59,163 bases of DNA from contig DATDWN010000001.1 in assembly GCA_036517395.1 (NCBI GenBank), forward strand, positions 1-59,163, in the 5' to 3' direction. This document shows positions 3,992 to 22,111 of this stretch, in pieces. The stretch is from Minisyncoccota bacterium (GTDB taxonomy: Bacteria; Patescibacteriota; Minisyncoccia; Phycocordibacterales; DATDWN01). A program made the translations under genes and the position numbers. Numbering within the stretch: the first letter of the stretch is position 1; each line of letters opens with the position of its first letter. The notes below the pieces were generated by a model. The model worked only from the letters and a program-made list of their open reading frames with translations, made no database searches and was not told where the DNA came from.

Positions 3992-5050
3992 ATGGAGAAT
4001 TTAAGCCCCAGAGAACAGAAAATACTGGATATCTTGTCAAAGCAGGATAAAGCTCAGTCTTCAGATATTCATGCATTATTAAAACTTTTGGATGAAGATT
4101 TGTCTCTTGTGACCGTCAAAAGAGTCTTATCACGACTTCAATCATTGGGGGTTATTATTGTAAACGGTTCTGGCCGATCAACCTCATATACCATAACCAC
4201 ATACGGCAGACTAGTTTCAAATATTGATGCTCACTTATACTGTCTCAACGAGCCAGACAGGCGTCACGGTAGAAGTGGATATAATTTTTCACTTTTTGAA
4301 ACACTAAGTTTTAATCCACTTACAATAGACGAAGAAAAGGTCTTGGATATGGCCACAAAAAAATATCATGTCCGCACAAAAGATCTCTCGACTACAATAC
4401 AAGAAAAAGAGTTGGAGCGTTTTATCATTGAACTTTCGTGGAAGTCTTCAAAAATCGAAGGTAATACATATACATTACTCGACACTGAAAAACTAATTCG
4501 AGAGGGGATTGAGGCCATGGGACACAGTAAAGATGAAGCTAAAATGATTCTAAACCATAAAGAAGCTTTCAAATTTATAAGAGAAAATTCATCTGAATTC
4601 AAAACATTAACCAAGAAAAACATAGAAGAAGTCCATAAAATTCTGGTCAAAGACCTAAATGTAGACTTTGGTTTGCGTAAAAAACCTGTCGGGGTAACAG
4701 GTTCGCTATACCGTCCACTTGATAACATTTACCAGATTTCCGAAGCAATGGAACAACTATCCAAAAGTATTTCTCGTATAAAAAATCCGTACACCCAAGC
4801 GCTTGTGGCACTCGTCGGTATTAGTTACATCCAACCATTTGAAGATGGGAACAAAAGAACAGCGCGACTTATGGCAAACGCTCTACTTTTAGCTCATAAA
4901 TGCGCCCCTCTTTCTTATAGGAGTGTAGACGAAAATGCCTATCGTGAATCAATGCTCGTGTTTTATGAATTAAACTCTCTTGTGCCATTTAAAAAAATAT
5001 TTATTGAACAATATGTTTTTTCTGCTGAAAATTACTTGGTAAAATCATAA
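3992..5050 (+). CDS. Fic/DOC family protein with N-terminal winged-HTH and degenerate Fic motif
   Basis: 352-aa ORF. Core reads QPFEDGNKRTAR where the canonical motif is HxFx(D/E)GNGRxxR. N-terminal HTH-like region (LSLVTVKRVLSRLQSLGVI). Confidence 0.8.
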   Translation: MENLSPREQKILDILSKQDKAQSSDIHALLKLLDEDLSLVTVKRVLSRLQSLGVIIVNGSGRSTSYTITTYGRLVSNIDAHLYCLNEPDRRHGRSGYNFSLFETLSFNPLTIDEEKVLDMATKKYHVRTKDLSTTIQEKELERFIIELSWKSSKIEGNTYTLLDTEKLIREGIEAMGHSKDEAKMILNHKEAFKFIRENSSEFKTLTKKNIEEVHKILVKDLNVDFGLRKKPVGVTGSLYRPLDNIYQISEAMEQLSKSISRIKNPYTQALVALVGISYIQPFEDGNKRTARLMANALLLAHKCAPLSYRSVDENAYRESMLVFYELNSLVPFKKIFIEQYVFSAENYLVKS

Positions 5051-5126
5051 TCAATAATTCTGTCATTGATAATTGTGAGCCATTGAGCTATGCAGTTGCA
5101 TTTAAAAAATACAGTATAATTTATTT

Positions 5127-5585
5127 ATGATTAAGAAAATTGTTTTGAAGTTAAAGAGTATAAGTTATTCTGGAAATTCAATAGGTGATGATATTAGGCT
5201 GGAAATTAATATTTTAGGAAAACCTTTTAGTCTGAAGAAAAAAATAAAAGTAGGTACAAAACAAGAGTTCGATAAAATAATTGGTGAATTTGATACTGAT
5301 AGAAAAACATTTTTTGAGGCAGAAAAATGGAAAGTGGGTATTTACGATATTGAAATTCCTGATGCGCCACATGAGGGCGGTATAAACTATACAAAAATAG
5401 CTAAGTTTGCCAAAGTTTGGTTTAGGGTGGGCCACAAAGACGCAAAATATCTCCACACAGGTATGCATTCGCTAGGTTGTATCACAGTTTTAGAACAAGA
5501 TAAATGGGACGAAATCTTTCATCAACTTATTAAGGCTCGCAAGGGTGATGGTTTAAGTGTGGGTGTCCTAGAAGTAGTTGATTAA
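5127..5585 (+). CDS. L,D-transpeptidase-fold protein (YkuD / Tlde1-DUF2778-like)
   Basis: 152-aa ORF. C-terminal LHTGMHSLGCITV matches the His...Ser-x-Gly-Cys catalytic signature of L,D-transpeptidase-like domains. No signal peptide. Confidence 0.6.
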   Translation: MIKKIVLKLKSISYSGNSIGDDIRLEINILGKPFSLKKKIKVGTKQEFDKIIGEFDTDRKTFFEAEKWKVGIYDIEIPDAPHEGGINYTKIAKFAKVWFRVGHKDAKYLHTGMHSLGCITVLEQDKWDEIFHQLIKARKGDGLSVGVLEVVD

Positions 5586-5587
5586 AT

Positions 5588-6106
5588 ATGACCAAAAAAC
5601 AAGCCGTAAAAATAATAATTATTCTTTGTTGCATAGTTTTTTTGCTTTTGGTGTGTTTTTATTTTTTTTCTAATCCGCGTTCTGTTAAATCATTTGGCCC
5701 ATTCAAGTTGGGCGATCAAGCGCCCATTGTATCGGAGAATGTACCAGAATATGAATTTATTTATAGTTTGAAATATAAATTTTATATATATGCCATGGAA
5801 AAGAATATGAGTTATTGTGCGTTAGAAGATTGTGGGATGAGCGGAACTTTCGTTAGTTGTATGGGGGGATGGCTTTCCGCCGATGGCTTAAGTGGTGACG
5901 GTGGTGCAAACGACTATGGTTTAGTGGAAGAAGAGGTCGTGGAAGGAAAATCATCCATTATTTTAGTCGCAGATAAAGACAAGAAGATTATAGGTATATA
6001 TCCAAATTATAGAGTGCAAAATATTCCTTATATTTTAAAGAACTATCGCGATGTATTTGAAAGATTTGATTCGTGTTATGAAATGGAAATGCCAACTAAG
6101 TGGTAA
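5588..6106 (+). CDS. Membrane-anchored protein of unknown function (possible partner of 5127..5585)
   Basis: 172-aa ORF starting 3 nt after the previous stop. N-terminal TM helix IIIILCCIVFLLLVCFYFF. Confidence 0.65.
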   Translation: MTKKQAVKIIIILCCIVFLLLVCFYFFSNPRSVKSFGPFKLGDQAPIVSENVPEYEFIYSLKYKFYIYAMEKNMSYCALEDCGMSGTFVSCMGGWLSADGLSGDGGANDYGLVEEEVVEGKSSIILVADKDKKIIGIYPNYRVQNIPYILKNYRDVFERFDSCYEMEMPTKW

Positions 6107-6284
6107 GTACCAAGTTTATTAAACTGTCATTTTTTAAACAAAAGAAAACCCCTAGCGAACTTGTCGCTGGGGGTTTTGGCGCGTGGGAAACGAAGGGGAG
6201 GACAAAAGTGGCGACCGTGACAGCTCCGACGAAGCAACCGAACGCAAACGACACCATCGCCACGATGATGAACCATGGAAACAT
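6096..6284 (-). CDS. Small hydrophobic peptide downstream of the hammerhead (tentative)
   Basis: SD AAAGGAG 7 nt upstream of ATG 6284. N-terminus MFPWFIIVAMVSFAFGCFVGAVTVATFVL is a TM helix. The reading frame runs through the terminator hairpin, so the true C-terminus is uncertain. Confidence 0.35.
   Translation of the reverse strand: MFPWFIIVAMVSFAFGCFVGAVTVATFVLPFVSHAPKPPATSSLGVFFCLKNDSLINLVLTT
6141..6177. terminator. Bidirectional intrinsic terminator
   Basis: 10-bp stem CCCCTAGCGA-ACTTG-TCGCTGGGGG (6149..6173) flanked by an A-rich run (6141..6148) and TTTT (6174..6177). Confidence 0.65.
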
Positions 6285-6344
6285 TTGACACTCCTTTGTT
6301 TAGGAACTTTATCCCGTAGTGAACTTCGCTCTACTACTGGGAAT

Positions 6345-6393
6345 CTGTTTCGTTCTTTCGAACTCATCAGGCAAAGTACACACTTTGCTACAG
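6345..6393 (-). ncRNA. Hammerhead ribozyme motif, type III topology
   Basis: Minus strand: CTGT-A | GCAAAGT-GTGT-ACTTTGC | CTGATGA | GTTC-GAAA-GAAC | GAAA-CAG. Complete catalytic core, GUA cleavage triplet (bond between 6389 and 6388). Stem III is only 4 bp. Confidence 0.7.
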
Positions 6394-6629
6394 TAAGAGT
6401 TTTTGTACGGACTCTTAAACCGTAGATACATAATTCCCAGTGTTGCATCATTTCTGGGTAGGAAATGCAAAAATTTTATCTTGCATATTCCTTCAGTTTT
6501 TGCGGTCTCGCCCTGCCTTATTGTTGAACTGGTGGCTAGCCAATTCTGATTTCGTGCAGGATCCCCGCTCACACTTTGTTTAGTGGGTTTTATTGTCTAG
6601 GAGTTGTCCTTCTCCACCAAGAGTCAAGC

Positions 6630-6944
6630 TTAGTCTCGTCCGGTTGTTATCGGGCCCGAAGGTCCCCTACTTACTGCCTGTGGAAGTTTGCAAACTACTC
6701 GGCCATTATCAACCACCTTACCAATAAGACTTCGGAGATTTTCAACCGCATCTTGTGGCAGTTCACGTTCTGCGATAATCTCTGCATCTCTACAGCTACC
6801 GTCACATGTTGTGATTACGCGACGGTCTACTATTGGTGGTGCATAGATCATGTTGACATGTATTCCATCAACACAGTAGTCCATTATTGCTCCTGATGGG
6901 ACAGGAACGTCTCTCGCTACCCTGAAGAGTCTCATTGTAGGCAT
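6630..6944 (-). CDS. Small Cys-containing protein of unknown function, first gene of the hammerhead transcription unit
   Basis: Strong SD AAGGAGG 7 nt upstream of ATG 6944 (the track's GTG at 6953 lies inside the SD region). 104 aa, MPTMRLFRVARDV... No family recognised. Confidence 0.6.
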   Translation of the reverse strand: MPTMRLFRVARDVPVPSGAIMDYCVDGIHVNMIYAPPIVDRRVITTCDGSCRDAEIIAERELPQDAVENLRSLIGKVVDNGRVVCKLPQAVSRGPSGPITTGRD

Positions 6945-7023
6945 CCTTTTCACCTCCTTTTTACCCTAAGAGCCATCAAAGGGCTTTGTGTACATGTGAG
7001 AGATTATCCCTCTTTCTGACATA

Positions 7024-7052
7024 AGATTAGCATGAATTATGACTAGTGTCAA
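7024..7052 (-). promoter_or_regulatory. Sigma70-like promoter of the 6.1-7.0 kb minus-strand unit
   Basis: Minus strand TTGACA (7052..7047), 17-nt spacer, TAATCT (7029..7024). Divergent from the TrmB-like gene. Confidence 0.5.
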
Positions 7053-7173
7053 AATAAATGACATAAAATTATTAACAATATCAAAAGACTATCATACTAT
7101 ATATGGCTAGTAACAAGGATAAAACAGACTACTTGCATAGTTTTTACTATTTGCTATAATACTGTCATCTAAA

Positions 7174-7959
7174 ATGACAACAGTAAAAACATCAAAAGAT
7201 CCACAGATTTCTGACTACCTAGTGAGGGTCATGACTAATGTTGGATTATCTAAAAATCAGGCTTGTGTATACTTGGCTTGTTTGAAACTAGGGAACGCAT
7301 CTATTTGGGATATTTCTGAAACTTCTGGGGTTAAAAGAACCACCTGTTATGTGGTTATAAATGATCTGGTATCCAAAGGCATAGCTAGTGTAGGTGGAGA
7401 TAGTAAGAAAGCTATGTATTCTGTCATCAGTCCAAATGAATTTATATTTAGTTTCAAAAACAAACAAAATCAACTAGTGGAGTCAGTCAGTGAACTAAAT
7501 GCTCTAATAAGTAAAACTTATTCCAGACCTCATCTCAGAATGTTTGAAGGGATTGATGGAGTAGAACAAGCTTATAAGCTGACTCTCAATATTTCCGAGG
7601 GAAATGAAATACTAATTTATGGAAATCCTGATGTTGTTATCAATTATCAAGGCATGATTGATAATTATTTGAGACAAAGGGTGAAAGATGGAATAAAAGT
7701 CAGAGCGATTCTGCCTGATACACTACTAGCTCGAGAAGTTATAGGGAAAGACAAGGAACAATTGAGAGAAACTCGACTCCTATCGAAAAATACTTTTGAC
7801 CAACAGACAGAAATAAATATTTTACCGGATTCAATCATTTACATCGCCCATTCGGAAAATAAACCATTTGCCACGGTTATAGAAAACTCCACTTTAGCCA
7901 GAGAAGAAAAGGGAAGGTTTGAGATTTTGTGGAGTATGGCAAAACTAGAAGATGTTTGA
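7174..7959 (+). CDS. TrmB-like transcriptional regulator
   Basis: 261-aa ORF. N-terminal winged HTH (LSKNQACVYLACLKLGNASIWDISETSGVKRTTCYVVINDLVSKGI). Paralogous to 17577..18338. Confidence 0.75.
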   Translation: MTTVKTSKDPQISDYLVRVMTNVGLSKNQACVYLACLKLGNASIWDISETSGVKRTTCYVVINDLVSKGIASVGGDSKKAMYSVISPNEFIFSFKNKQNQLVESVSELNALISKTYSRPHLRMFEGIDGVEQAYKLTLNISEGNEILIYGNPDVVINYQGMIDNYLRQRVKDGIKVRAILPDTLLAREVIGKDKEQLRETRLLSKNTFDQQTEINILPDSIIYIAHSENKPFATVIENSTLAREEKGRFEILWSMAKLEDV

Positions 7960-15152: not shown

Positions 15153-15314
15153 TATTTGGTGGTACAATTACACATGAACTAGAACTGATATTTTTGAAGA
15201 TTTTTGTTCTAGTTCGAAGCTCGCAAGTTTTGTTTGTGACCAAGCTGTATAGAAATACTGCGCATGGAGCAAACAAAACTGAGAGCGAAGAAATCGGACA
15301 AAAAGATCAAAAAT

Positions 15315-16901
15315 ATGGCTGTATCTAAAATATACTCTGCACAAGCTACCCTACTCAACGCTCAAATCATAGATATACAAGTTGACTTGTCGAAGGGACT
15401 GCAGGCTTTTTCTGTTGTCGGACTTGCTGATAAATCTGTCGACGAAAGCAAAGACCGAGTTTCGGCGGCTATAAAAAACTCTGGCTGGAAATCGCCAAAG
15501 AATAAAAATCAAAAAGTAGTGGTCTCTCTTGCTCCGGCCGATGTTAAGAAGGAAGGACCTCTGTTTGACCTGCCCATCGCTATCGGATATTTACTTGCCC
15601 AAGAAGAAATAAAAGCCGACGTAGAAAAAAGATTATTCATCGGCGAACTTTCTCTCGATGGAAAAATCCGACCTATAAAAGGAGCACTTCCTATAACCCA
15701 GAGAGCTAAGAAAGAGGGTTTCAAAGAAATATTTCTGCCAATCGAAAATGCTGAGGAGGCGGGAAATATTGCTGGGATAAAAATTTATGGTGCAGAGTCT
15801 CTTTTGGATGTGGTTAGACATATAAATACTAAAAAAATGGACTTGGAAAAATGTATGGATGAAGGAAAAGCTTTTGTTCCTCACATAGAGATTCCTGCAT
15901 ATAAATCCAAAAAGAAAAAGGTCAAAGAGTCAGAAATAGAAGTTGATTTTGCCGACATAAAAGGCCAGGAATCGGCCAAAAGAGGCCTAGAAATAGCCGC
16001 ATCTGGTGGACACAATATACTGATGTATGGCCCTCCCGGAACGGGAAAAACCATGTTGGCTCGGGCTTTTTCACACCTTTTGCCACAGCTTTCCTTTGAC
16101 GATAAACTGGAGGTGACTTCTATTTATTCCATAGGTGGGGTCCTCTCGGGTGGACTTGTGGAAGAAGCGCCTTTTCGATCGCCACATCACACCGCTTCAT
16201 ATGTGTCCCTCGTCGGTGGTGGAGCAAATCTAAAACCTGGGGAGGTGACACTGGCTCACAAAGGCGTACTTTTTATGGACGAGTTTCCGGAGTTTGATAA
16301 AAAAGTTTTGGAAAGTCTGAGACAGCCTCTGGAAGACCGCTATGTTACTGTCTCACGAGCAAAGGGCTCTGTTCGATATCCTGCGGATTTCATTCTTGTT
16401 GCCACTATGAACCCATGTCCGTGCGGAAACTACGGAGTGAAGGGTAAAGACTGCACATGTTCTGCACAAAATATAGAAAAATATAAAAGAAAACTGTCAG
16501 GGCCGATTGTCGACCGCATTGATCTTTGGGTGGAAGTGTCGAAAGTGGAACACCAGAAACTGACGGACGCGCGAGAACTGCACGAGGGAACGAAAGCTAT
16601 GAAACCGAGAGTAGAGAAGGCGCGAAAAATACAGGAAGAAAGATACAAGAAAGCCAAACTGAAAATAAAAACCAATGGCGAGTTGACTTCGAGAGATTTA
16701 GTTAAACATATTTTGCTTTCGGATAAAGTTAAAGAGACTTTGAACAACTCCGCAAAAGCATTTGACCTCTCGGCCCGCTCGTATCATCGAATAATAAAAC
16801 TAGCGCGGACTATTGCGGATATGGAGGGAAGCAAAGACGTTGCAGAAAACCATATTTTAGAAGCGCTTCAATATAGACCAAAGAAGTACCAAAATTTTTA
16901 A
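15315..16901 (+). CDS. comM: YifB/ComM family Mg-chelatase-like ATPase
   Basis: Lon-protease-like N-domain, Walker A GPPGTGKTM, CPCG zinc motif, C-terminal SARSYHRIIKLARTIADMEG. Start could also be 15264. Confidence 0.85.
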   Translation: MAVSKIYSAQATLLNAQIIDIQVDLSKGLQAFSVVGLADKSVDESKDRVSAAIKNSGWKSPKNKNQKVVVSLAPADVKKEGPLFDLPIAIGYLLAQEEIKADVEKRLFIGELSLDGKIRPIKGALPITQRAKKEGFKEIFLPIENAEEAGNIAGIKIYGAESLLDVVRHINTKKMDLEKCMDEGKAFVPHIEIPAYKSKKKKVKESEIEVDFADIKGQESAKRGLEIAASGGHNILMYGPPGTGKTMLARAFSHLLPQLSFDDKLEVTSIYSIGGVLSGGLVEEAPFRSPHHTASYVSLVGGGANLKPGEVTLAHKGVLFMDEFPEFDKKVLESLRQPLEDRYVTVSRAKGSVRYPADFILVATMNPCPCGNYGVKGKDCTCSAQNIEKYKRKLSGPIVDRIDLWVEVSKVEHQKLTDARELHEGTKAMKPRVEKARKIQEERYKKAKLKIKTNGELTSRDLVKHILLSDKVKETLNNSAKAFDLSARSYHRIIKLARTIADMEGSKDVAENHILEALQYRPKKYQNF

Positions 16902-16927
16902 CCTGTGGATACCCTCATTGACTCTAT

Positions 16928-17209
16928 TTGTACAAAGTGTACAATATGGTTATGAATATAAAAACAATGTCGTCGACCAAAGCTAGGGCAAATATAAGCG
17001 AGATTATTGAACGGGTTAAGACCCGTGGGGAAGTTTTTGTTTTCGGCAGAAGAAACAACCCTGAGGCAGTACTAGTCAAGTTCCCAGATGTTTATAATTC
17101 AAGATTTTCAGATATTACAAATGTAAATGCTTATTCTGGTAGTTTTGATTTTCTAAAAAAAGAACCAGACCTATATAGTATAAAAGATTTAAAGAAAAAA
17201 TATGCATAG
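16928..17209 (+). CDS. Type II antitoxin, Phd/YefM family
   Basis: SSTKARANISEIIERVKTRGEVFVFGRRNNPEAVLV. Overlaps the toxin start by 8 nt. Confidence 0.75.
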   Translation: MYKVYNMVMNIKTMSSTKARANISEIIERVKTRGEVFVFGRRNNPEAVLVKFPDVYNSRFSDITNVNAYSGSFDFLKKEPDLYSIKDLKKKYA

Positions 17210-17537
17210 CGGTGTATTTAGTTTGGGGAAAATAATTCTGATACCTTTTCCGTTTACAGACTTGTCCGGAGTAAAAGTTCGTCCTGCCGTAATAATCTCA
17301 AATAAATCAATAGGAGATGATATCTTAGTAGCTTTTATTTCAACTAACACCAAGAAAAAAAGCCATTTTGAAATTGTAGTGAAAATGAACAATCAAAATG
17401 GGTTAAAATCCGACTCTACTGTTGTGGTTTCAAAGATTGCTACGCTAGAAAAGAAAACTGTTTTAGGTGAGATTGGAAAATTATCAAAAAGTGAAATCTT
17501 ACAAGTAAAGAAAAAACTCAAAGATTTGTTTTTCTGA
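17202..17537 (+). CDS. Type II toxin, MazF/PemK-like
   Basis: GKIILIPFPFTDLSGVKVRPAVIIS pattern. Confidence 0.75.
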   Translation: MHSGVFSLGKIILIPFPFTDLSGVKVRPAVIISNKSIGDDILVAFISTNTKKKSHFEIVVKMNNQNGLKSDSTVVVSKIATLEKKTVLGEIGKLSKSEILQVKKKLKDLFF

Positions 17538-17576
17538 AATAATTTTAGACCTTTAGTGTTATGATATAATACAGCC

Positions 17577-18338
17577 ATGATTGATAAATATCTAGAAGAT
17601 GCGGGGCTTTCGGATAAAGAAGTGGCCGTATATTTGCACCTAGTCCAGGTGGAACAGGCCTCTGTAGTCGAACTGGCTCAAAAAACCAAAATAAAAAGGC
17701 CGACTGTTTACACCATACTCGACTCACTTTCAAAAAAGGGTTTAGTTAGCGAAATAGAGTATGACAAAAAAACTAAATATCTAGCTGAACCACCAGAAAG
17801 GTTAAAAACATTTATTGAGAGAAAAGAAATGTCTCTAAACGAACTAAAGGATCGTTTCGTTAAAGATGTGATACCACAAATAAAAAGCCTACAGAGAGAG
17901 AGCGGAGAGAAACCAATAGTAAGATATTTCTCTGGCAAAGAGGGAATAGTTAGTTTGCAAAACAATATATACTCCGGATCCCCAGATGGTTCTCCAATTT
18001 ATATACTTTATCCAAAGGATCTTTTAGATGAATCATTCAAGGATGAAGAAACAGATAAGTACAAAAAAACAAGAACAGGTATAGGAATAAAAGCGAAAGT
18101 CCTCTATAACTGGACAAAGGGGGAGAAGCCATCAGACGAATTGGCTGAAAGAAAGAAGGTTGACGAAAAAAAATATCCATTCTTCGCCGATATAACAGTA
18201 TATAAAGACAAAGTCAGAATTAGTATTTTAGGTAAAAAATTATCTGGAATATATATTGAGAGTAAGGACTTTGCTGAAACGTTGAAAAGTCTTTTCAATC
18301 TAGCCTTTGATAATCTAAAAAATAATTCGGATAAATAA
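17577..18338 (+). CDS. TrmB-like transcriptional regulator
   Basis: LSDKEVAVYLHLVQVEQASVVELAQKTKIKRPTVYTILDSLSKKGLV winged HTH. Paralog of 7174..7959. Confidence 0.75.
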   Translation: MIDKYLEDAGLSDKEVAVYLHLVQVEQASVVELAQKTKIKRPTVYTILDSLSKKGLVSEIEYDKKTKYLAEPPERLKTFIERKEMSLNELKDRFVKDVIPQIKSLQRESGEKPIVRYFSGKEGIVSLQNNIYSGSPDGSPIYILYPKDLLDESFKDEETDKYKKTRTGIGIKAKVLYNWTKGEKPSDELAERKKVDEKKYPFFADITVYKDKVRISILGKKLSGIYIESKDFAETLKSLFNLAFDNLKNNSDK

Positions 18339-18344
18339 GTCGAG

Positions 18345-18626
18345 GCCCGACCGAGTGAGGAGAAGCGATTCCCCATCCCTCGGCCGAGCCCCTGTGTTGC
18401 GATTCACTTCCCACCCCTTCGGAAGGGAGTGAACCTACTAGTCGAGCATCTTGCTCTCTTTCTTCTGGCCCCCTCCTACGTGGGGCCAATGAGACGAAAC
18501 TACGACTCTATAGTGAACACATGACTTGTTTTGGTGGAACTTCTGTCCCGCCCCGATCTGCGCTCTCAAAGGCAGCAGTATTATCGGGGCGGTCAGGCCA
18601 CCTTAGTCATGCATGGACACCTCCTG
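18345..18626 (-). ncRNA. Unclassified GC-rich RNA convergent with the TrmB-like gene (tentative)
   Basis: Minus-strand promoter TTGACA (18660..18655), 16 nt, TATACT (18638..18633). Hairpins CCGCCCCGAT...ATCGGGGCGG and GGCCCC...GGGGCC. Only 3-5 codon ORFs follow the AGGAGG. No clear terminator. Confidence 0.35.
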
Positions 18627-18806
18627 CCGACCAGTATATACCCCTCGTTTTATTTGTCAAGTTTAAATATTAAATGTTTATAAAACTGTTTAAAGAAGTG
18701 TCAAATTTAGTATAAATCAGTCAGTCTCGATTATCAATCATAATGTATAAAATGGCTTTATTTAGAGCTATTTTTAGTGTAGTAAGAAAGAAAATGTCAG
18801 AAGTAC

Positions 18807-18835
18807 TTGACAGAAAATACGAATAGGTATATACT
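18807..18835 (+). promoter_or_regulatory. Sigma70-like promoter of the 18.8-21.0 kb hammerhead unit
   Basis: TTGACA (18807..18812), 17-nt spacer, TATACT (18830..18835). Confidence 0.6.
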
Positions 18836-19273
18836 ATCTCCAGAATCAAAACATTGAAAGTCAGGACGGTTTGACAGATGTCTCAGCTTTTGCTTCCACT
18901 TAGGCGCCTGGATCGCACAAATTAGTTGCGAGAGGCCCTAGGCGGGAGCAAAAGCTTCCAACAAGACTATGTCACAGGTACAAATCCTGATTGGCGCTGG
19001 GATTGCTGTCCACTCGTTTGTGGATGGCGCCCGAGTGTCGCGGCCGAAGCTTCGGGAAACCGAAGTGGACGCCCTCGCCCATGCCCTGTGGCTTGAAAAC
19101 CACGGTCAGCAGAAGCGAGCTCTGAAGTATCTGGAAGAATATCTCCAGAGAAACAGAGGCAATACTTGCCACTTAGGTGGCGGCCGGGGTGTTATCGCAG
19201 TCCTGGGAACAGAAAATGCGTACGCGGTTGGTTAACCGAGAAACAAAAATAACCCAGTTGGCTTGCCAACTGT

Positions 19274-19326
19274 ATCTGTCGTCCGATGTGTGTCGGGCTT
19301 GATGAGTTCAAAAGAACGAAACAGAT
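19274..19326 (+). ncRNA. Hammerhead ribozyme motif, type III, variant core
   Basis: ATCTGT-C | GTCCGA-TGTGTG-TCGGGC | TTGATGA | GTTC-AAAA-GAAC | GAAA-CAGAT. Same architecture as the other two copies, but position C3 reads U (or CUUGAUGA with an extra U). Confidence 0.55.
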
Positions 19327-20072
19327 GTTCCTTAAAATTTTGAAAAATAACTTCGTGGCCATGTTACTGAATCTCAACTTTTTAGATTCAGTAACATGGC
19401 CATGGAGAGCCAGATAGTCCAGCGATGGACGATTCGTCTCGGACAGCACGACCGAGGCGGGGTTGTATCGAAAGATATAATCCAAATCTCCACATATGTG
19501 GTTAAGAGGAGGGTCTACCAAACCCGAGGCCTCTCAGCCACATATGTTCGTAGCGTTTGGCGATGCTACGAAAGTTAGAAGACGAAACAGGCCCGAGGAA
19601 GTGACTGTCCGAAGGGTTTCTGATGAAAGTCAGAAGTGTGCCAACACCTGTTAGTTGGAAAGTCAGTGGCTAGGCTTAGGGACCGCAAGTCTCTTTGCTA
19701 AAGCCTCCCCCATTACTGACACAGTGCGGTCGCAAATTTGCAAAAATTTGCGAAGGCAAAGTTGGGGGGAAACCAAGAGCGTAGAGCCAGACCTCATCGT
19801 ACAGAGGGAGAGTGGATTAAGCCCCACTCATGCGTGAAACCCCGGCCAGGGTGAATCGCAATAAGCTCTTGGTGGATATGGTGGGCAACCGGCCGTCCCA
19901 AAAGGACACAGGTTGTGGTTAAAAGAGTAGAACCGATCGCAAATCGGTGGTTGGAGCTCGGGGTCACCTGGGCGCAATCTACTCTGGAGGCAAAATTGAC
20001 CTTGTTTGCTTCCACCTTGTTCTTTCTTCAGGCAATAAATAAATTTGTCTGAACGTCGCCAGAACGCATCTG

Positions 20073-20127
20073 GTACTGTCGTCTGATGTGTATCAGACCT
20101 GATGAGTTCGAAAGAACGAAACAGTAC
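20073..20127 (+). ncRNA. Hammerhead ribozyme motif, type III, canonical core
   Basis: GTACTGT-C | GTCTGAT-GTGT-ATCAGAC | CTGATGA | GTTC-GAAA-GAAC | GAAA-CAGTAC. 7-bp stem III, GUC triplet (cleavage after C20080), GNRA-capped stem II. Confidence 0.8.
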
Positions 20128-20220
20128 AAGGTTTGTGTTTATTAGGGATTTCCTTAAAAGTAAATTATTTTGATAGTTTTCTTTTAAGGGAAATTCTTCC
20201 CTAGTTCTTTGAGGACACAC

Positions 20221-20619
20221 ATGACCAAAGTGACGATGGTTCTTCTCTTGGCGGCGTCGGCTCTCTTCGGCGGCTGCGACAAGCTCCTCGTGGTGCCCGT
20301 CCGCGCCTACTGCGACCGAGAGGTTTCGTACACTCTCTGGAAGCAGGAGGGAAGGGCCTACCGGCTCCACCTCAACGTCGGCGCGGTGGACGAACGGGTG
20401 TGCATCGGAAATCTCGATGTCTCCCGCGAGATCAACTTGTCGCAAGATGTTTCCTCACCCGAGGAAGCGGACAAGCTCGTCGAGAAGTATCGGCGTCTTT
20501 ACGCCGAGAAACTCGCCGCTCGGCGTCCCACCATGAAGCTGGAGCTTCCCAAGCTCCCAGCCAAGAGGCCTGCGACACCCCAGTCGCAGAACCAGTGTCC
20601 AAAACCCGATCCGAAATGA
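20221..20619 (+). CDS. GC-rich putative lipoprotein
   Basis: SD GAGGA 6 nt upstream of ATG 20221. Signal peptide with lipobox MTKVTMVLLLAASALFGG-C. Lys/Pro-rich C-terminus. 93 nt downstream of the hammerhead. Confidence 0.65.
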   Translation: MTKVTMVLLLAASALFGGCDKLLVVPVRAYCDREVSYTLWKQEGRAYRLHLNVGAVDERVCIGNLDVSREINLSQDVSSPEEADKLVEKYRRLYAEKLAARRPTMKLELPKLPAKRPATPQSQNQCPKPDPK

Positions 20620-21015
20620 TCGGGTTCCCACCAGAGATTTTTTGAAAAAGAAATTTGTGGTGGGAAGGTGCGAACCTAGGAAAACCCAAGTAAGCGTCAT
20701 CGTAGAGCAACGACCTGTGCCCATGTGGCCGGATAGCCTACACACGCCGAAAGGTTAGTACTTTGTTGGAGCTCAAAGAGCAGATGCTCGCCTTCCCTTC
20801 AAATTCGTTGTCCAGGCCGGTGCAGCGGTCCGAGGACTCGAGAGGTGAAATTTGCCACCTTAGTAAGTGATGCCTCCCACTACTCCAAAAAAGTAGAAGG
20901 TGGATGGTCAGTAGAGATACTGACAATCGGGTTTAATGCGAGTGGCTTAAATCGTTTTCCAAGGAGGTGGCCACGCTCGCTAAAATAAAACCTGAACTGC
21001 ACATGTTCCTTCCCG

Positions 21016-21040
21016 AGCGCATCGACCCGATGCGCTTTTC
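21016..21040 (+). terminator. Intrinsic terminator closing the hammerhead unit
   Basis: AGCGCATC-GACCC-GATGCGCT followed by TTTT. Confidence 0.6.
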
Positions 21041-21052
21041 GTTACATAAAAA

Positions 21053-22111
21053 CTAAAATGGGTTTTTGGCGCTACGAATTTCGAAGTGTAAATGAACGCC
21101 TGTCGCTCCTTTTACAGAACCGCTGTTTCCCATTTTGCCTATGACTTGTCCCTGTCTGACGCTGTCACCTGCGGAGACCATTGTTGCACTCAAATGTCCA
21201 TATAAGGTTTGAGTACCATTGCTGTGTTTTATAACAATATAAGAACCATAACCTCCATTCCAGCCAGAGTTACGAGATATGATGACTTCACCAGAAGCTG
21301 AAGCTAAAATATTTGCCCCGTAATATGAAGCCAAGTCGACGCCATTGTGACCGTGGATGCCCTGAGTCTTTATTCCGCCGATAATTGGTCGCATGTAGTA
21401 ACCACTATAAATAGGGTACGAGGAGGATTTACTTCCTCCGCCAGAAACTACTCCAGAAACTACTCCGACTTCACCATCTGGGATAACCACAACATCCCCG
21501 ACAGCCAGTTTCGCACCAAGAGTTAAGTTGTTATATTGCAAGATTTCGTCCAAGTCGCCTTTGTAGATCTTGGCTATGCTTTGTAGTGTGTCGCCTGACT
21601 TGACCGTATGTTGGACACCGGAAATAGGCAGGATGACCAGAGTTTGGCCCACGGTTATGGTACTTCCTTTTATATCATTGCCCCAGCGTATAGTATTGAC
21701 CGAAACGCCAAACATTTTGGCGATGGCAGGTAGGGTGTCGCCTGAGTGAACAACATAGAGACTAATCTGATCTTGGTCTATGGTTTTGACATCACCTTGG
21801 ACTTGGGCGTCCGGCAAAAGAGAAGTTCCTCCAACTATAGTAGCGCTGTCTTTTGTACTCGAAGCACTCTGATCTGGAGAGATAGTCGCTTGAAGCAAAG
21901 CCATGTTTTGAGAGTTTGGTTGTATCTCTTCGGTCTCGGCGCTAACTGACGAAAAAAGGCTAGATATAAAAGAAAAAACGCTCGCATTAGCGTGAAGTGG
22001 CAATAAAAGCGTCGAGAGGAGAGTGAAAGCTAAAACCAAAGACGCCCATATGTTCACCGTATTTTCGCCTGATCCCGCGCTTCGAAAATATCCTAAACAT
22101 TTTCTCAGCAC
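21053..22111 (-). CDS. LysM-domain M23 family peptidoglycan endopeptidase
   Basis: Two LysM repeats (YVVHSGDTLPAIAKMFGVSVNTIRWGN; HTVKSGDTLQSIAKIY). M23 motifs HNGVDLA and GVHLHFEIR. Confidence 0.85.
   Translation of the reverse strand: MLRKCLGYFRSAGSGENTVNIWASLVLAFTLLSTLLLPLHANASVFSFISSLFSSVSAETEEIQPNSQNMALLQATISPDQSASSTKDSATIVGGTSLLPDAQVQGDVKTIDQDQISLYVVHSGDTLPAIAKMFGVSVNTIRWGNDIKGSTITVGQTLVILPISGVQHTVKSGDTLQSIAKIYKGDLDEILQYNNLTLGAKLAVGDVVVIPDGEVGVVSGVVSGGGSKSSSYPIYSGYYMRPIIGGIKTQGIHGHNGVDLASYYGANILASASGEVIISRNSGWNGGYGSYIVIKHSNGTQTLYGHLSATMVSAGDSVRQGQVIGKMGNSGSVKGATGVHLHFEIRSAKNPF

Follow-up and report, generated by a model that had tools for sequence, protein, structure and literature searches.

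Clustered hammerhead ribozymes flank genes in polycistronic RNAs of bacteria and prophages; three tandem arrangements self-cleave in vitro and one does so in vivo (PMC3088659). Hammerheads also delimit the retrozymes and viroid-like circular RNAs of eukaryotes (PMC4918200, PMC5680766), and bacteria are known to make the large folded RNAs OLE, GOLLD, and ROOL (PMC12286853). Here we describe a locus that resembles each of these in part. It lies in a 59,163-nt stretch of DNA from a Minisyncoccota bacterium (contig DATDWN010000001.1, positions 1 to 59,163; here called the window) and forms a unit at 18807-21040 in which two hammerheads, HH1 and HH2, enclose a large structured noncoding RNA, the cassette, upstream of a lipoprotein gene. 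All evidence on this unit is computational. It points, with fair though not strong confidence, to a chromosomal, ribozyme-punctuated operon whose self-cleavage would release the large RNA, in a member of the Paceibacteria, within the candidate phyla radiation (CPR). Features are on the plus strand unless stated otherwise, and related loci carry L numbers.

Two type III hammerheads bracket the cassette

Matches to Rfam family RF00008 place HH1 at 19274-19326 (24.9 bits) and HH2 at 20073-20127 (44.9 bits; E = 6.5e-8), one on either side of the cassette and in the order that a preliminary description of this DNA, made from the sequence alone, had proposed. Cuts are predicted at C19280/G19281 and C20080/G20081, and the predicted excised product is 19281-20080, 800 nt. 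The core of HH2 is canonical (CUGAUGA...GAAA, cleavage triplet GUC). HH1 reads UUGAUGA, with U3 in place of the otherwise invariant C3 and the expected nucleotide at every remaining core position; U3 is identical across four independent assemblies (L001 to L003 and L010). For each hammerhead the minimum-free-energy fold is the canonical three-way junction, with type III helices around the core (I and II closed by loops, III open). Neither reaches the RF00008 gathering score of 48.5 bits; a short stem II (4 bp with a tetraloop) and a stem I loop of 4 nt lower the scores. Hammerheads of relatives score 28 to 46.4 bits, and E-values across window and relatives run from 6.5e-8 to 0.07. HH1 and HH2 are new members of a known ribozyme class in a known kind of arrangement; we found no account of hammerheads in Parcubacteria in the literature.

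The 14 copies compared from the window and its relatives all belong to one subtype, with a 7-bp stem I, a 3- to 4-nt loop (usually GUGU), and a 4- to 5-bp stem II. All carry GAAA and CUGAUGA, U3 occurring only in HH1 of the window, and stem III is CUGU/ACAG in 13 (the exception is the middle copy of L007). Stem I covaries, with seven different sequences among the 14. Within one genome the copies have their stem I in common, GUCYGAU in the window and GCAAAGU elsewhere, which points to duplication or gene conversion. At this locus, at window positions 6393..6345, and in L017, the hammerhead lies 45 to 95 nt 5' of the start codon of a small open reading frame (ORF).

The cassette is a conserved, covarying noncoding RNA

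Between the hammerheads (19327-20072) lie an AU-rich linker (19327-19350), a first hairpin of 26 bp (19351-19407), some 28 helices that make up the conserved core (19408-19975), and a tail that varies and ends in the hairpin CCAGA..UCUGG (20059-20073). Five distinct homologs, namely those of the window, L022 (= L020), L023 (= L019), L007 (= L014), and L015, were obtained via lipoprotein neighbors, a synteny scan with the adjacent TrmB-family regulator, and one metagenome pattern scan. RNAalifold applied to these five gave 214 pairs in 30 helices, a structure on which 94.8% of cells pair. Both sides change in 64 of the 214 pairs, against 23.4 ± 3.6 in column shuffles (0 of 500 reached 64) and 4 to 12 when partners were slid. 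The first hairpin of L015 has a wholly different sequence and is still a hairpin. The minimum free energy of 19282-20080 (799 nt) is −329 kcal/mol, compared with −240 ± 8 for shuffled sequences (z = −11). Core identity is 71 to 88% among the five homologs (76 to 88% to the window), while the adjacent lipoprotein drops to 46% protein identity. Invariant columns make up 59% of unpaired and 59% of paired core positions; such parity is usual for RNAs that make tertiary or ligand contacts.

A coding role for the cassette was rejected, since substitutions among the five homologs have no 3-nt periodicity, indels are of 1, 2, and 4 nt, and stop codons occur in all six frames. The preliminary description had proposed selection on RNA structure and had named codon-periodic conservation in place of covariation as the pattern that would speak against it. 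That pattern did not appear in the cassette, and covariation is found directly in the cassette, in the 5' hairpin, and in the 3' domain.

The cassette matched no Rfam family when 18200-21200 was searched with cmscan at E-values up to 10, and scans of this region and of the relatives (the latter at E-values up to 0.1 to 1) returned only tRNA and the subthreshold hammerheads. Modules A, B, and D and a minus-strand RNA at 18339-18660, all described below, likewise matched no Rfam family, so the scan of the 5' and 3' regions that had been suggested earlier yielded no assignment. GOLLD, ROOL, OLE, HEARO, RNase P, and group I and II introns were absent from the cmscan matches in 18200-21200 and in the relatives, and ARAGORN reported no transfer-messenger RNA. 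BLAST of the cassette against phage and plasmid collections gave no match, nor did two cassette patterns run against viral contigs. The metagenome pattern scan gave four true matches (two distinct sequences) and one chance match, L021, located within an AT-rich stretch dense in ORFs (a ketoacyl-synthase-like gene by eye) and without a BLAST match to any module. We found no description of the cassette RNA in the literature. The cassette is a real, new family of large structured noncoding RNA with a very narrow distribution.

Other readings of parts of the cassette were set aside. An RNase P-like interpretation of GGAAAGUC was rejected for want of a covariance-model match and because its partner ACUGAC is only ∼45 nt away; GGAAAGUC/ACUGAC is a local helix in which A-U changes to G-C in L007 and L023. 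No domain V-like hairpin of a group II intron was visible by eye, and a retron or diversity-generating retroelement was discarded because the neighboring genes include no reverse transcriptase. The recurring motif GAAAGTCAG does occur three times, as had been noted, against 0.76 expected (3 of 100 shuffles reach three), but the recurrence is mostly chance. Only the copy at 19658 sits in a conserved, invariant block; there GUCAGU (19662-67) and ACUGAC (19715-20) can form a helix in which A-U becomes G-C in L007 and L023.

The unit has its own promoter, terminator, and composition

The promoter consists of TTGACA (−35, 18807-18812) and TATACT (−10, 18830-18835) separated by 17 nt, with 11 of 12 consensus matches, and is kept at every orthologous locus. 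Its −35 element overlaps a palindrome, TGTCA-N7-TTGACA (18795-18812), and both promoter and palindrome recur in L007, L015, L018, L022, L023, L028, and L017. From its position the palindrome may be the operator of the unit, and the adjacent TrmB-family regulator may be the protein that uses it. More TGTCAA boxes lie in the AT-rich region that separates two divergent promoters (18650-18812). The unit closes with an intrinsic terminator (21015-21045), a hairpin with a 10-bp GC-rich stem (21015-21037; −15.3 kcal/mol, z = −4.3) followed by UUUUCGUU, and each ortholog has a terminator of its own at the corresponding position. Promoter, terminator, hammerheads, and cassette are thus all where the preliminary description had put them, and its picture of one unit, running from promoter to terminator, in which structured RNA predominates stands; "mostly noncoding" has to be qualified, since the 5' part encodes a conserved small ORF.

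The contrast in composition with the flanks is also real. GC content is 51% over 18842-21040 versus 40% for the window, rising at ∼18.34 kb and falling at ∼21.05 kb, and the lipoprotein gene (60% GC) has a third-position GC content (GC3) of 0.75 versus 0.31 to 0.45 in background genes. Such steps could mark foreign DNA from a high-GC organism, such as a host, or an assembly chimera, both of which had been raised; we consider either highly improbable. Assemblies made independently from other samples (L003, L010, and L004) read across both junctions, which are identical in L010 and L003, and the lipoprotein sequence is present on 11 contigs from several samples and assemblers. The operon, GC-rich and with shuffled modules, occupies the same chromosomal place in several Paceibacteria species. 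Members of the lipoprotein and small-ORF (sORF68) families turned up on no other kind of contig, and the low-GC syntenic surroundings of the lipoprotein were always the same; the records that carry a name belong to Patescibacteria, a Patescibacteria record being the only named source of the lipoprotein. Phage and plasmid matches are lacking. The lipoprotein orthologs of L007 and L009 have a GC3 of 0.61 to 0.66 within AT-rich genomes, which, with the restricted distribution of the families, indicates that high GC is a long-standing property of the operon and not a recent import. The high GC of the RNA modules is presumably selected at the RNA level.

Modules upstream and downstream of the cassette

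The transcript would begin with module A (18857-18956), a small hairpin (18860-18875) plus an irregular ∼70-nt hairpin (18887-18955). The latter contains the long-range pairing AGCUUUUGCU...AGCAAAAGCU that had been noticed earlier and that proved genuine; across six species, 10 of the 31 pairs of module A show compensatory change. Module A would stabilize the 5' end of the transcript. It is followed by a small ORF (18969-19235) that encodes 88 amino acids (aa) in the window and has a conserved core of 68 codons (18969-19172). Of its seven homologs, the six nonidentical ones are 67 to 76 aa long and 61 to 71% identical. The greater length in the window results from loss of the usual stop codon (TAG to TTA), with the frame continuing into module B; L015 stops where the window has TTA. 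Against L015 the frame is intact and free of indels. Third-position substitution bias is weak, so that the case for coding rests mainly on conserved frame and length, and no Pfam family matched at cut-off. Other species have a different conserved ORF of 42 aa (MRDLLKALRGS...) at this position, with clear synonymous bias even against Azambacteria. The ∼430-nt 5' RNA is therefore hairpin-rich, as first described, but not all noncoding. Module B (19183-19272; GTTATCGCAGYCCTGGGAACAGAAAATGC.TAC.CGG), a highly conserved block with a hairpin, fills the interval after the small ORF and before HH1 and is 88 to 93% identical by BLAST in L026 and L028, both of which lack hammerhead and cassette.

Downstream of HH2, the leader (20128-20220) contains a palindrome, UUCCUUAAAAG...CUUUUAAGGGAA, an overlapping hairpin, AGGGAAAUUCUUCCCU, that was flagged as terminator-like, and the Shine-Dalgarno sequence GAGGA (20211-20215); its fold has −30.1 kcal/mol (z = −4.1). 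The invariant palindrome CCUUAAAAG...CUUUUAAGGG (short form of the arms, CCTTAAAAG..CTTTTAAGG) appears once or twice per operon in relatives, and the motif is conserved in nine copies from seven loci. Its general form is (Y)UCCUUAAAAG-N(17-30)-CUUUUAAGGGRA, placed before coding sequences or module D (window 20145-20205 and 20626-20666; L007 9925-9975 and 10830-10875; also L023, L018, L022, L011, and L028). It is kept by sequence and not by covariation, and could be where a protein binds, where RNase III cuts, or where recombination takes place during module shuffling.

The GC-rich lipoprotein gene (20221-20619) encodes an orphan protein of 132 aa, in which a signal peptide is followed by the lipobox LFGGC; two more cysteines are conserved. 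Against the general pattern for such proteins, a signal peptide and then a lipobox [LVI][ASTVI][GAS]C, the sequence reads MTKVTMVLLLAASALFGG-C, and its cysteine, the predicted site of lipidation, is invariant in the five homologs (46 to 99% identical), in agreement with the coding sequence first proposed. Conserved tracts aligned to L007 change at third codon positions (by eye, uncounted). The searches suggested earlier returned these five homologs and no Pfam family above threshold, PDB sequence match, or fold match: an AlphaFold model of moderate confidence (predicted local distance difference test score 68; four strands and a helix) found nothing in the PDB with an E-value below 0.49 by Foldseek. 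The 3' untranslated RNA (20620-21015) starts with a leader-like hairpin, UUCCCACCA...UGGUGGGAA (20626-20666), continues with a species-specific stretch (20670-20800), and ends in the conserved, structured module D (20800-21015; internal AAGGAGGUGGCC), in which 16 of 36 pairs are compensatory across six species. Conservation is confined to the last ∼200 to 215 nt. Of the ∼390 nt of 3' structured RNA described before, 20800-21015 was borne out; the part at 20664-20798, from which the pairing GGGAAGG.GCGA...TCGCCTTCCC had been taken as an example, has no BLAST match in relatives.

The hammerhead-cassette unit is an optional part of a module mosaic

Upstream of the unit the window carries comM, a PhdYeFM/PemK toxin-antitoxin pair, and the TrmB-family regulator; an M23 peptidase gene and uvrD/pcrA lie downstream, and dnaA, dnaN, tyrS, gatB, and obg are found in other parts of the window. 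Synteny with the TrmB protein led to corresponding loci in genomes of Candidatus Zambryskibacteria, Paceibacterota, Azambacteria, and Patescibacteria, and ComM is 79 to 85% identical to that of the window in the five relatives where it was found. On these grounds we assign the organism to the Paceibacteria (Parcubacteria). Module order differs from locus to locus. In the window it is A, sORF68, B, hammerhead, cassette, hammerhead, leader, lipoprotein, D. L022 has A, sORF42, B, hammerhead, cassette, hammerhead, X, leader, a lipoprotein-like gene, and D. L023 follows L022 except that another module substitutes for B and additional small ORFs take the position of the lipoprotein-like gene. L007 also keeps the order of L022 and adds a third hammerhead and an AT-rich insert, as well as an extra leader and small membrane ORF past the lipoprotein. 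L015 runs sORF68, B, hammerhead, cassette, leader, and a Gly/Pro-rich ORF, with no second hammerhead. L018 has A, lipoprotein, hammerhead, X, leader, and D. L013 and L028 lack both hammerhead and cassette, and the Azambacteria locus L017 repeats the design with one canonical hammerhead, hammerhead-like motifs seen by eye, and repeated RNA modules, all without a cassette. Hammerhead and cassette together are thus present in five and absent from three equally related genomes, and comparison of the loci indicates that they are an optional unit of an older, rapidly rearranging small-protein operon.

Several further features of these loci were observed. Module X, a conserved, structured-looking RNA of ∼340 nt without an Rfam match, stands directly 3' of a hammerhead in relatives (L007 9575-9910; L018 8905-9250; L022 4620-4990; L023 2125-1790, minus strand) and has no counterpart in the window. 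L017 (Candidatus Azambacteria GW2011_GWA2_42_9, 4250-7500), a more distant relative in which the design is larger in scale, carries the promoter, the conserved 39- to 42-aa ORF, three GC-rich small ORFs, repeated RNA modules of ∼200 nt, a canonical hammerhead at 7165-7219 (46.4 bits), and, by eye, hammerhead-like motifs with an odd stem II near 5165 and 5715. The interval between comM and the M23 peptidase gene (the 15264-18338 side in the window) is a rearrangement hotspot. In L023 the toxin-antitoxin pair is on the opposite side of the operon and TrmB is only 47% identical to that of the window. Horizontal transfer of the cassette to L023 was considered on that account and rejected: ComM (85%) and the PhdYeFM antitoxin (87%) mark L023 as a close relative with a swapped regulator. 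L028 (825-1049) and L023 (1101..922, minus strand) each contain a small ORF with an H-x3-C-x2-C motif (MCKVHLCE...HLTRCEECTGKL), which we take to resemble a zinc-binding anti-sigma-factor motif.

Proposed processing of the transcript and alternatives

We propose that the near-consensus promoter, which is probably regulated, gives rise to one ∼2.2-kb transcript that would cleave itself cotranscriptionally at the two predicted sites into three RNAs. RNA 1 would start with the covarying stabilizer hairpin and code for the ∼68-aa protein. RNA 2, the 800-nt product, would consist of the HH1 body and the ∼650-nt conserved fold of ∼30 helices and would most likely act in trans, as a folded RNA or an RNA-protein particle. 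RNA 3 would be the lipoprotein mRNA, with a 5'-hydroxyl end and folded HH2 ahead of leader and Shine-Dalgarno sequence, and with domain D and the terminator at its 3' end. The hammerheads would act as natural insulators that free the mRNA from the large upstream fold. The ends that cleavage would leave, 5'-hydroxyl and 2',3'-cyclic phosphate, should be resistant to end-dependent RNases. The comparisons above show the anatomy, its conservation and covariation, the noncoding character of the cassette, and the mosaic of modules among species; that the unit is transcribed and cleaved, the chemistry of the ends, stabilization, and action of the large RNA in trans are inferred.

Four observations weigh against this proposal. 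HH1 and HH2 both score under the Rfam gathering threshold. HH1 has the U3 core variant, and mutations at most hammerhead core positions cause a drastic loss of activity (PMC3088659), so U3 probably slows the upstream cut and may make it inefficient in this organism. A downstream hammerhead is missing from L015, and full excision is therefore not universal. Finally, there are only five distinct cassette sequences, all from close genomes (ComM 79 to 85% identical), so the covariation counts rest on few independent events.

Two other fates of the cassette were weighed. The direct-repeat hammerheads might excise an 800-nt RNA whose ends are sealed into a stable, retrozyme-like circle, which on the sequence features at hand we regard as unlikely. 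Here the 3' end CUGUC, with its cyclic phosphate, would perhaps pair with ACAG of the HH1 body at the 5' end; hammerhead self-ligation or RtcB is a tentative candidate for the sealing step; and hammerhead and cassette might, though we doubt it, behave as one module, selfish or domesticated, that spreads or is lost. The predicted but rather improbable signature is the back-junction ...CAUCUGGUACUGUC|GUCCGAUGUGUGUCGGGC.... The layout is that of known producers of hammerhead circular RNAs, direct repeats around 600 to 1,000 nt of noncoding RNA (PMC4918200, PMC5680766). CUGU/ACAG as stem III in 13 of 14 copies means that a hybrid hammerhead could usually re-form at the junction, a stem I shared within each genome fits duplication or recombination at the hammerhead, and the cassette is patchy among equally related genomes. 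Yet there is a single copy per contig, always in the ComM-TrmB neighborhood; no reverse transcriptase is nearby, viral collections gave no match, and Perreault et al. could not detect circles from bacterial tandem hammerheads (PMC3088659). The stem III strand of the upstream hammerhead in L007 (CUUUU/AAAAG) cannot pair with the downstream CUGUC, and L015 has no downstream hammerhead. Circularization, plausible in the window, L022, and L023, where a 4- to 5-bp hybrid stem III could form, is for these last two reasons not a conserved requirement. RtcB was absent from the ten large window ORFs scanned with Pfam and from the annotated neighbors, which is uninformative for a 59-kb window. Were an abundant, ornate circular RNA made after all, which we think doubtful, it would be the first DNA-encoded bacterial hammerhead circular RNA system, a domesticated viroid- or retrozyme-like module in an episymbiotic CPR lineage; a cellular function of its own, for example as an RNA-only assembly or an RNA-protein particle, is an equally speculative prospect.

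It is less likely still that no separate RNA is made and that the cassette is a giant 5' leader of the lipoprotein mRNA, serving as sensor or decay barrier with hammerheads that are regulatory or decaying. Within its transcript the cassette is always 5' of small-ORF modules, in L015 it passes directly into leader and coding sequence with no hammerhead between, HH1 of the window is a core variant, and the two overlapping hairpins of the leader, one of them terminator-like, could form a switch. However, what lies downstream varies (lipoprotein, module X, or Gly/Pro-rich ORF) while the cassette stays 71 to 88% identical, four of the five loci keep a canonical hammerhead between cassette and next module, and lipoprotein orthologs in L013 and L018 are predicted to be expressed from the same promoter without a cassette. 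We favor a released RNA acting independently in trans over such a cis-acting leader because the cassette is far better conserved than its neighbors and the downstream gene differs between species.

Other hammerhead loci and a divergent transcript

A second small operon occupies 6096-7130 on the minus strand, with a promoter near 7050 and a terminator after its last ORF. In order, it comprises a 107-aa ORF (6953..6630), a structured spacer, a third type III hammerhead (6393..6345, minus strand; canonical core, stem I GCAAAGU/ACUUUGC), a Shine-Dalgarno sequence, and a 62-aa membrane ORF (6284..6096). It is divergent from a second TrmB-family regulator gene (7174-7959); hammerhead-punctuated small-protein operons beside TrmB-like regulators thus recur in this genome. 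The same hammerhead subtype (stem I GCAAAGUG...CUUUGC) is present in two IMG/VR viral contigs, L024 (3548-3596) and L025 (1433-1677); in L025 two copies flank an ORF of ∼30 codons between larger genes.

Divergent from the main unit, 18339-18660 on the minus strand would form a separate GC-rich transcript (57.5% GC) from a near-consensus promoter of its own (TTGACA 18660.. and TATACT ..18633). A strong Shine-Dalgarno sequence stands at its start, together with a mini-ORF of 3 to 4 codons, M-x-D(-E)-stop (AGGAGGUGUCC AUG CAU GAC UAA), that is kept in seven aligned loci (four codons in L007). There follow ∼250 nt of poorly conserved GC-rich RNA and a terminator shared with the convergent TrmB gene.

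Comparison with known systems

The closest parallel is with the bacterial and prophage clusters of Perreault et al. (PMC3088659), in which several hammerheads per transcript flank single genes or short blocks, the flanked genes vary, and processing into unit-length RNAs is the proposed role. The viral contig L025, with two same-subtype copies around a small ORF, resembles the prophage clusters in particular. Here, by contrast, what the hammerheads flank is not a gene but a noncoding, conserved fold of ∼650 nt, and the setting is not a prophage but the chromosome of a CPR bacterium with housekeeping genes (comM, uvrD, and dnaA in the window).

With retrozymes and viroid-like circular RNAs of eukaryotes the locus shares type III hammerheads as direct repeats, a structured noncoding RNA in the size range of 600 to 1,000 nt, and excised ends suited to ligation (PMC4918200, PMC5680766). 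Unlike them it is found in bacteria, as a single copy at a syntenic site; one homolog has no second hammerhead, and the repeats are only ∼65 nt (hammerhead plus AU-rich spacer) and not long terminal repeats. Dispersed copies were not found among the contigs, each of which has one copy at the syntenic site. No primer-binding site, polypurine tract, target-site duplication, or reverse-transcriptase partner was evident, primer-binding and polypurine motifs not having been searched for.

The cassette is like OLE, GOLLD, and ROOL (PMC12286853) in its size class of 600 to 800 nt, its dozens of helices, its conserved unpaired nucleotides, and its abundance of GNRA-type loops (the window cassette has CGCAA five times). 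It differs from them in having no Rfam match, in its phylum, in being represented by five sequences only, and in its ribozyme-defined ends. New large bacterial RNAs supported by covariation are uncommon, and OLE, GOLLD, and ROOL were each structurally surprising. If the proposed processing is correct, this would be the first such large RNA with ends set by self-cleaving ribozymes, and for a host from the CPR, with its small genomes, to keep about 2 kb of structured RNA conserved is a considerable commitment. The locus also suggests a natural role for hammerheads on bacterial chromosomes, that of insulating and punctuating small-protein operons that mix noncoding and coding modules. In synthetic biology, RiboJ-type insulators place a hammerhead and a hairpin upstream of the ribosome-binding site. 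The unit has the same order of hammerhead, hairpin, and Shine-Dalgarno sequence, and cleavage would likewise strip the upstream context and leave a structured 5'-hydroxyl end; unlike RiboJ, it is a natural element, and its leader is a conserved palindrome.

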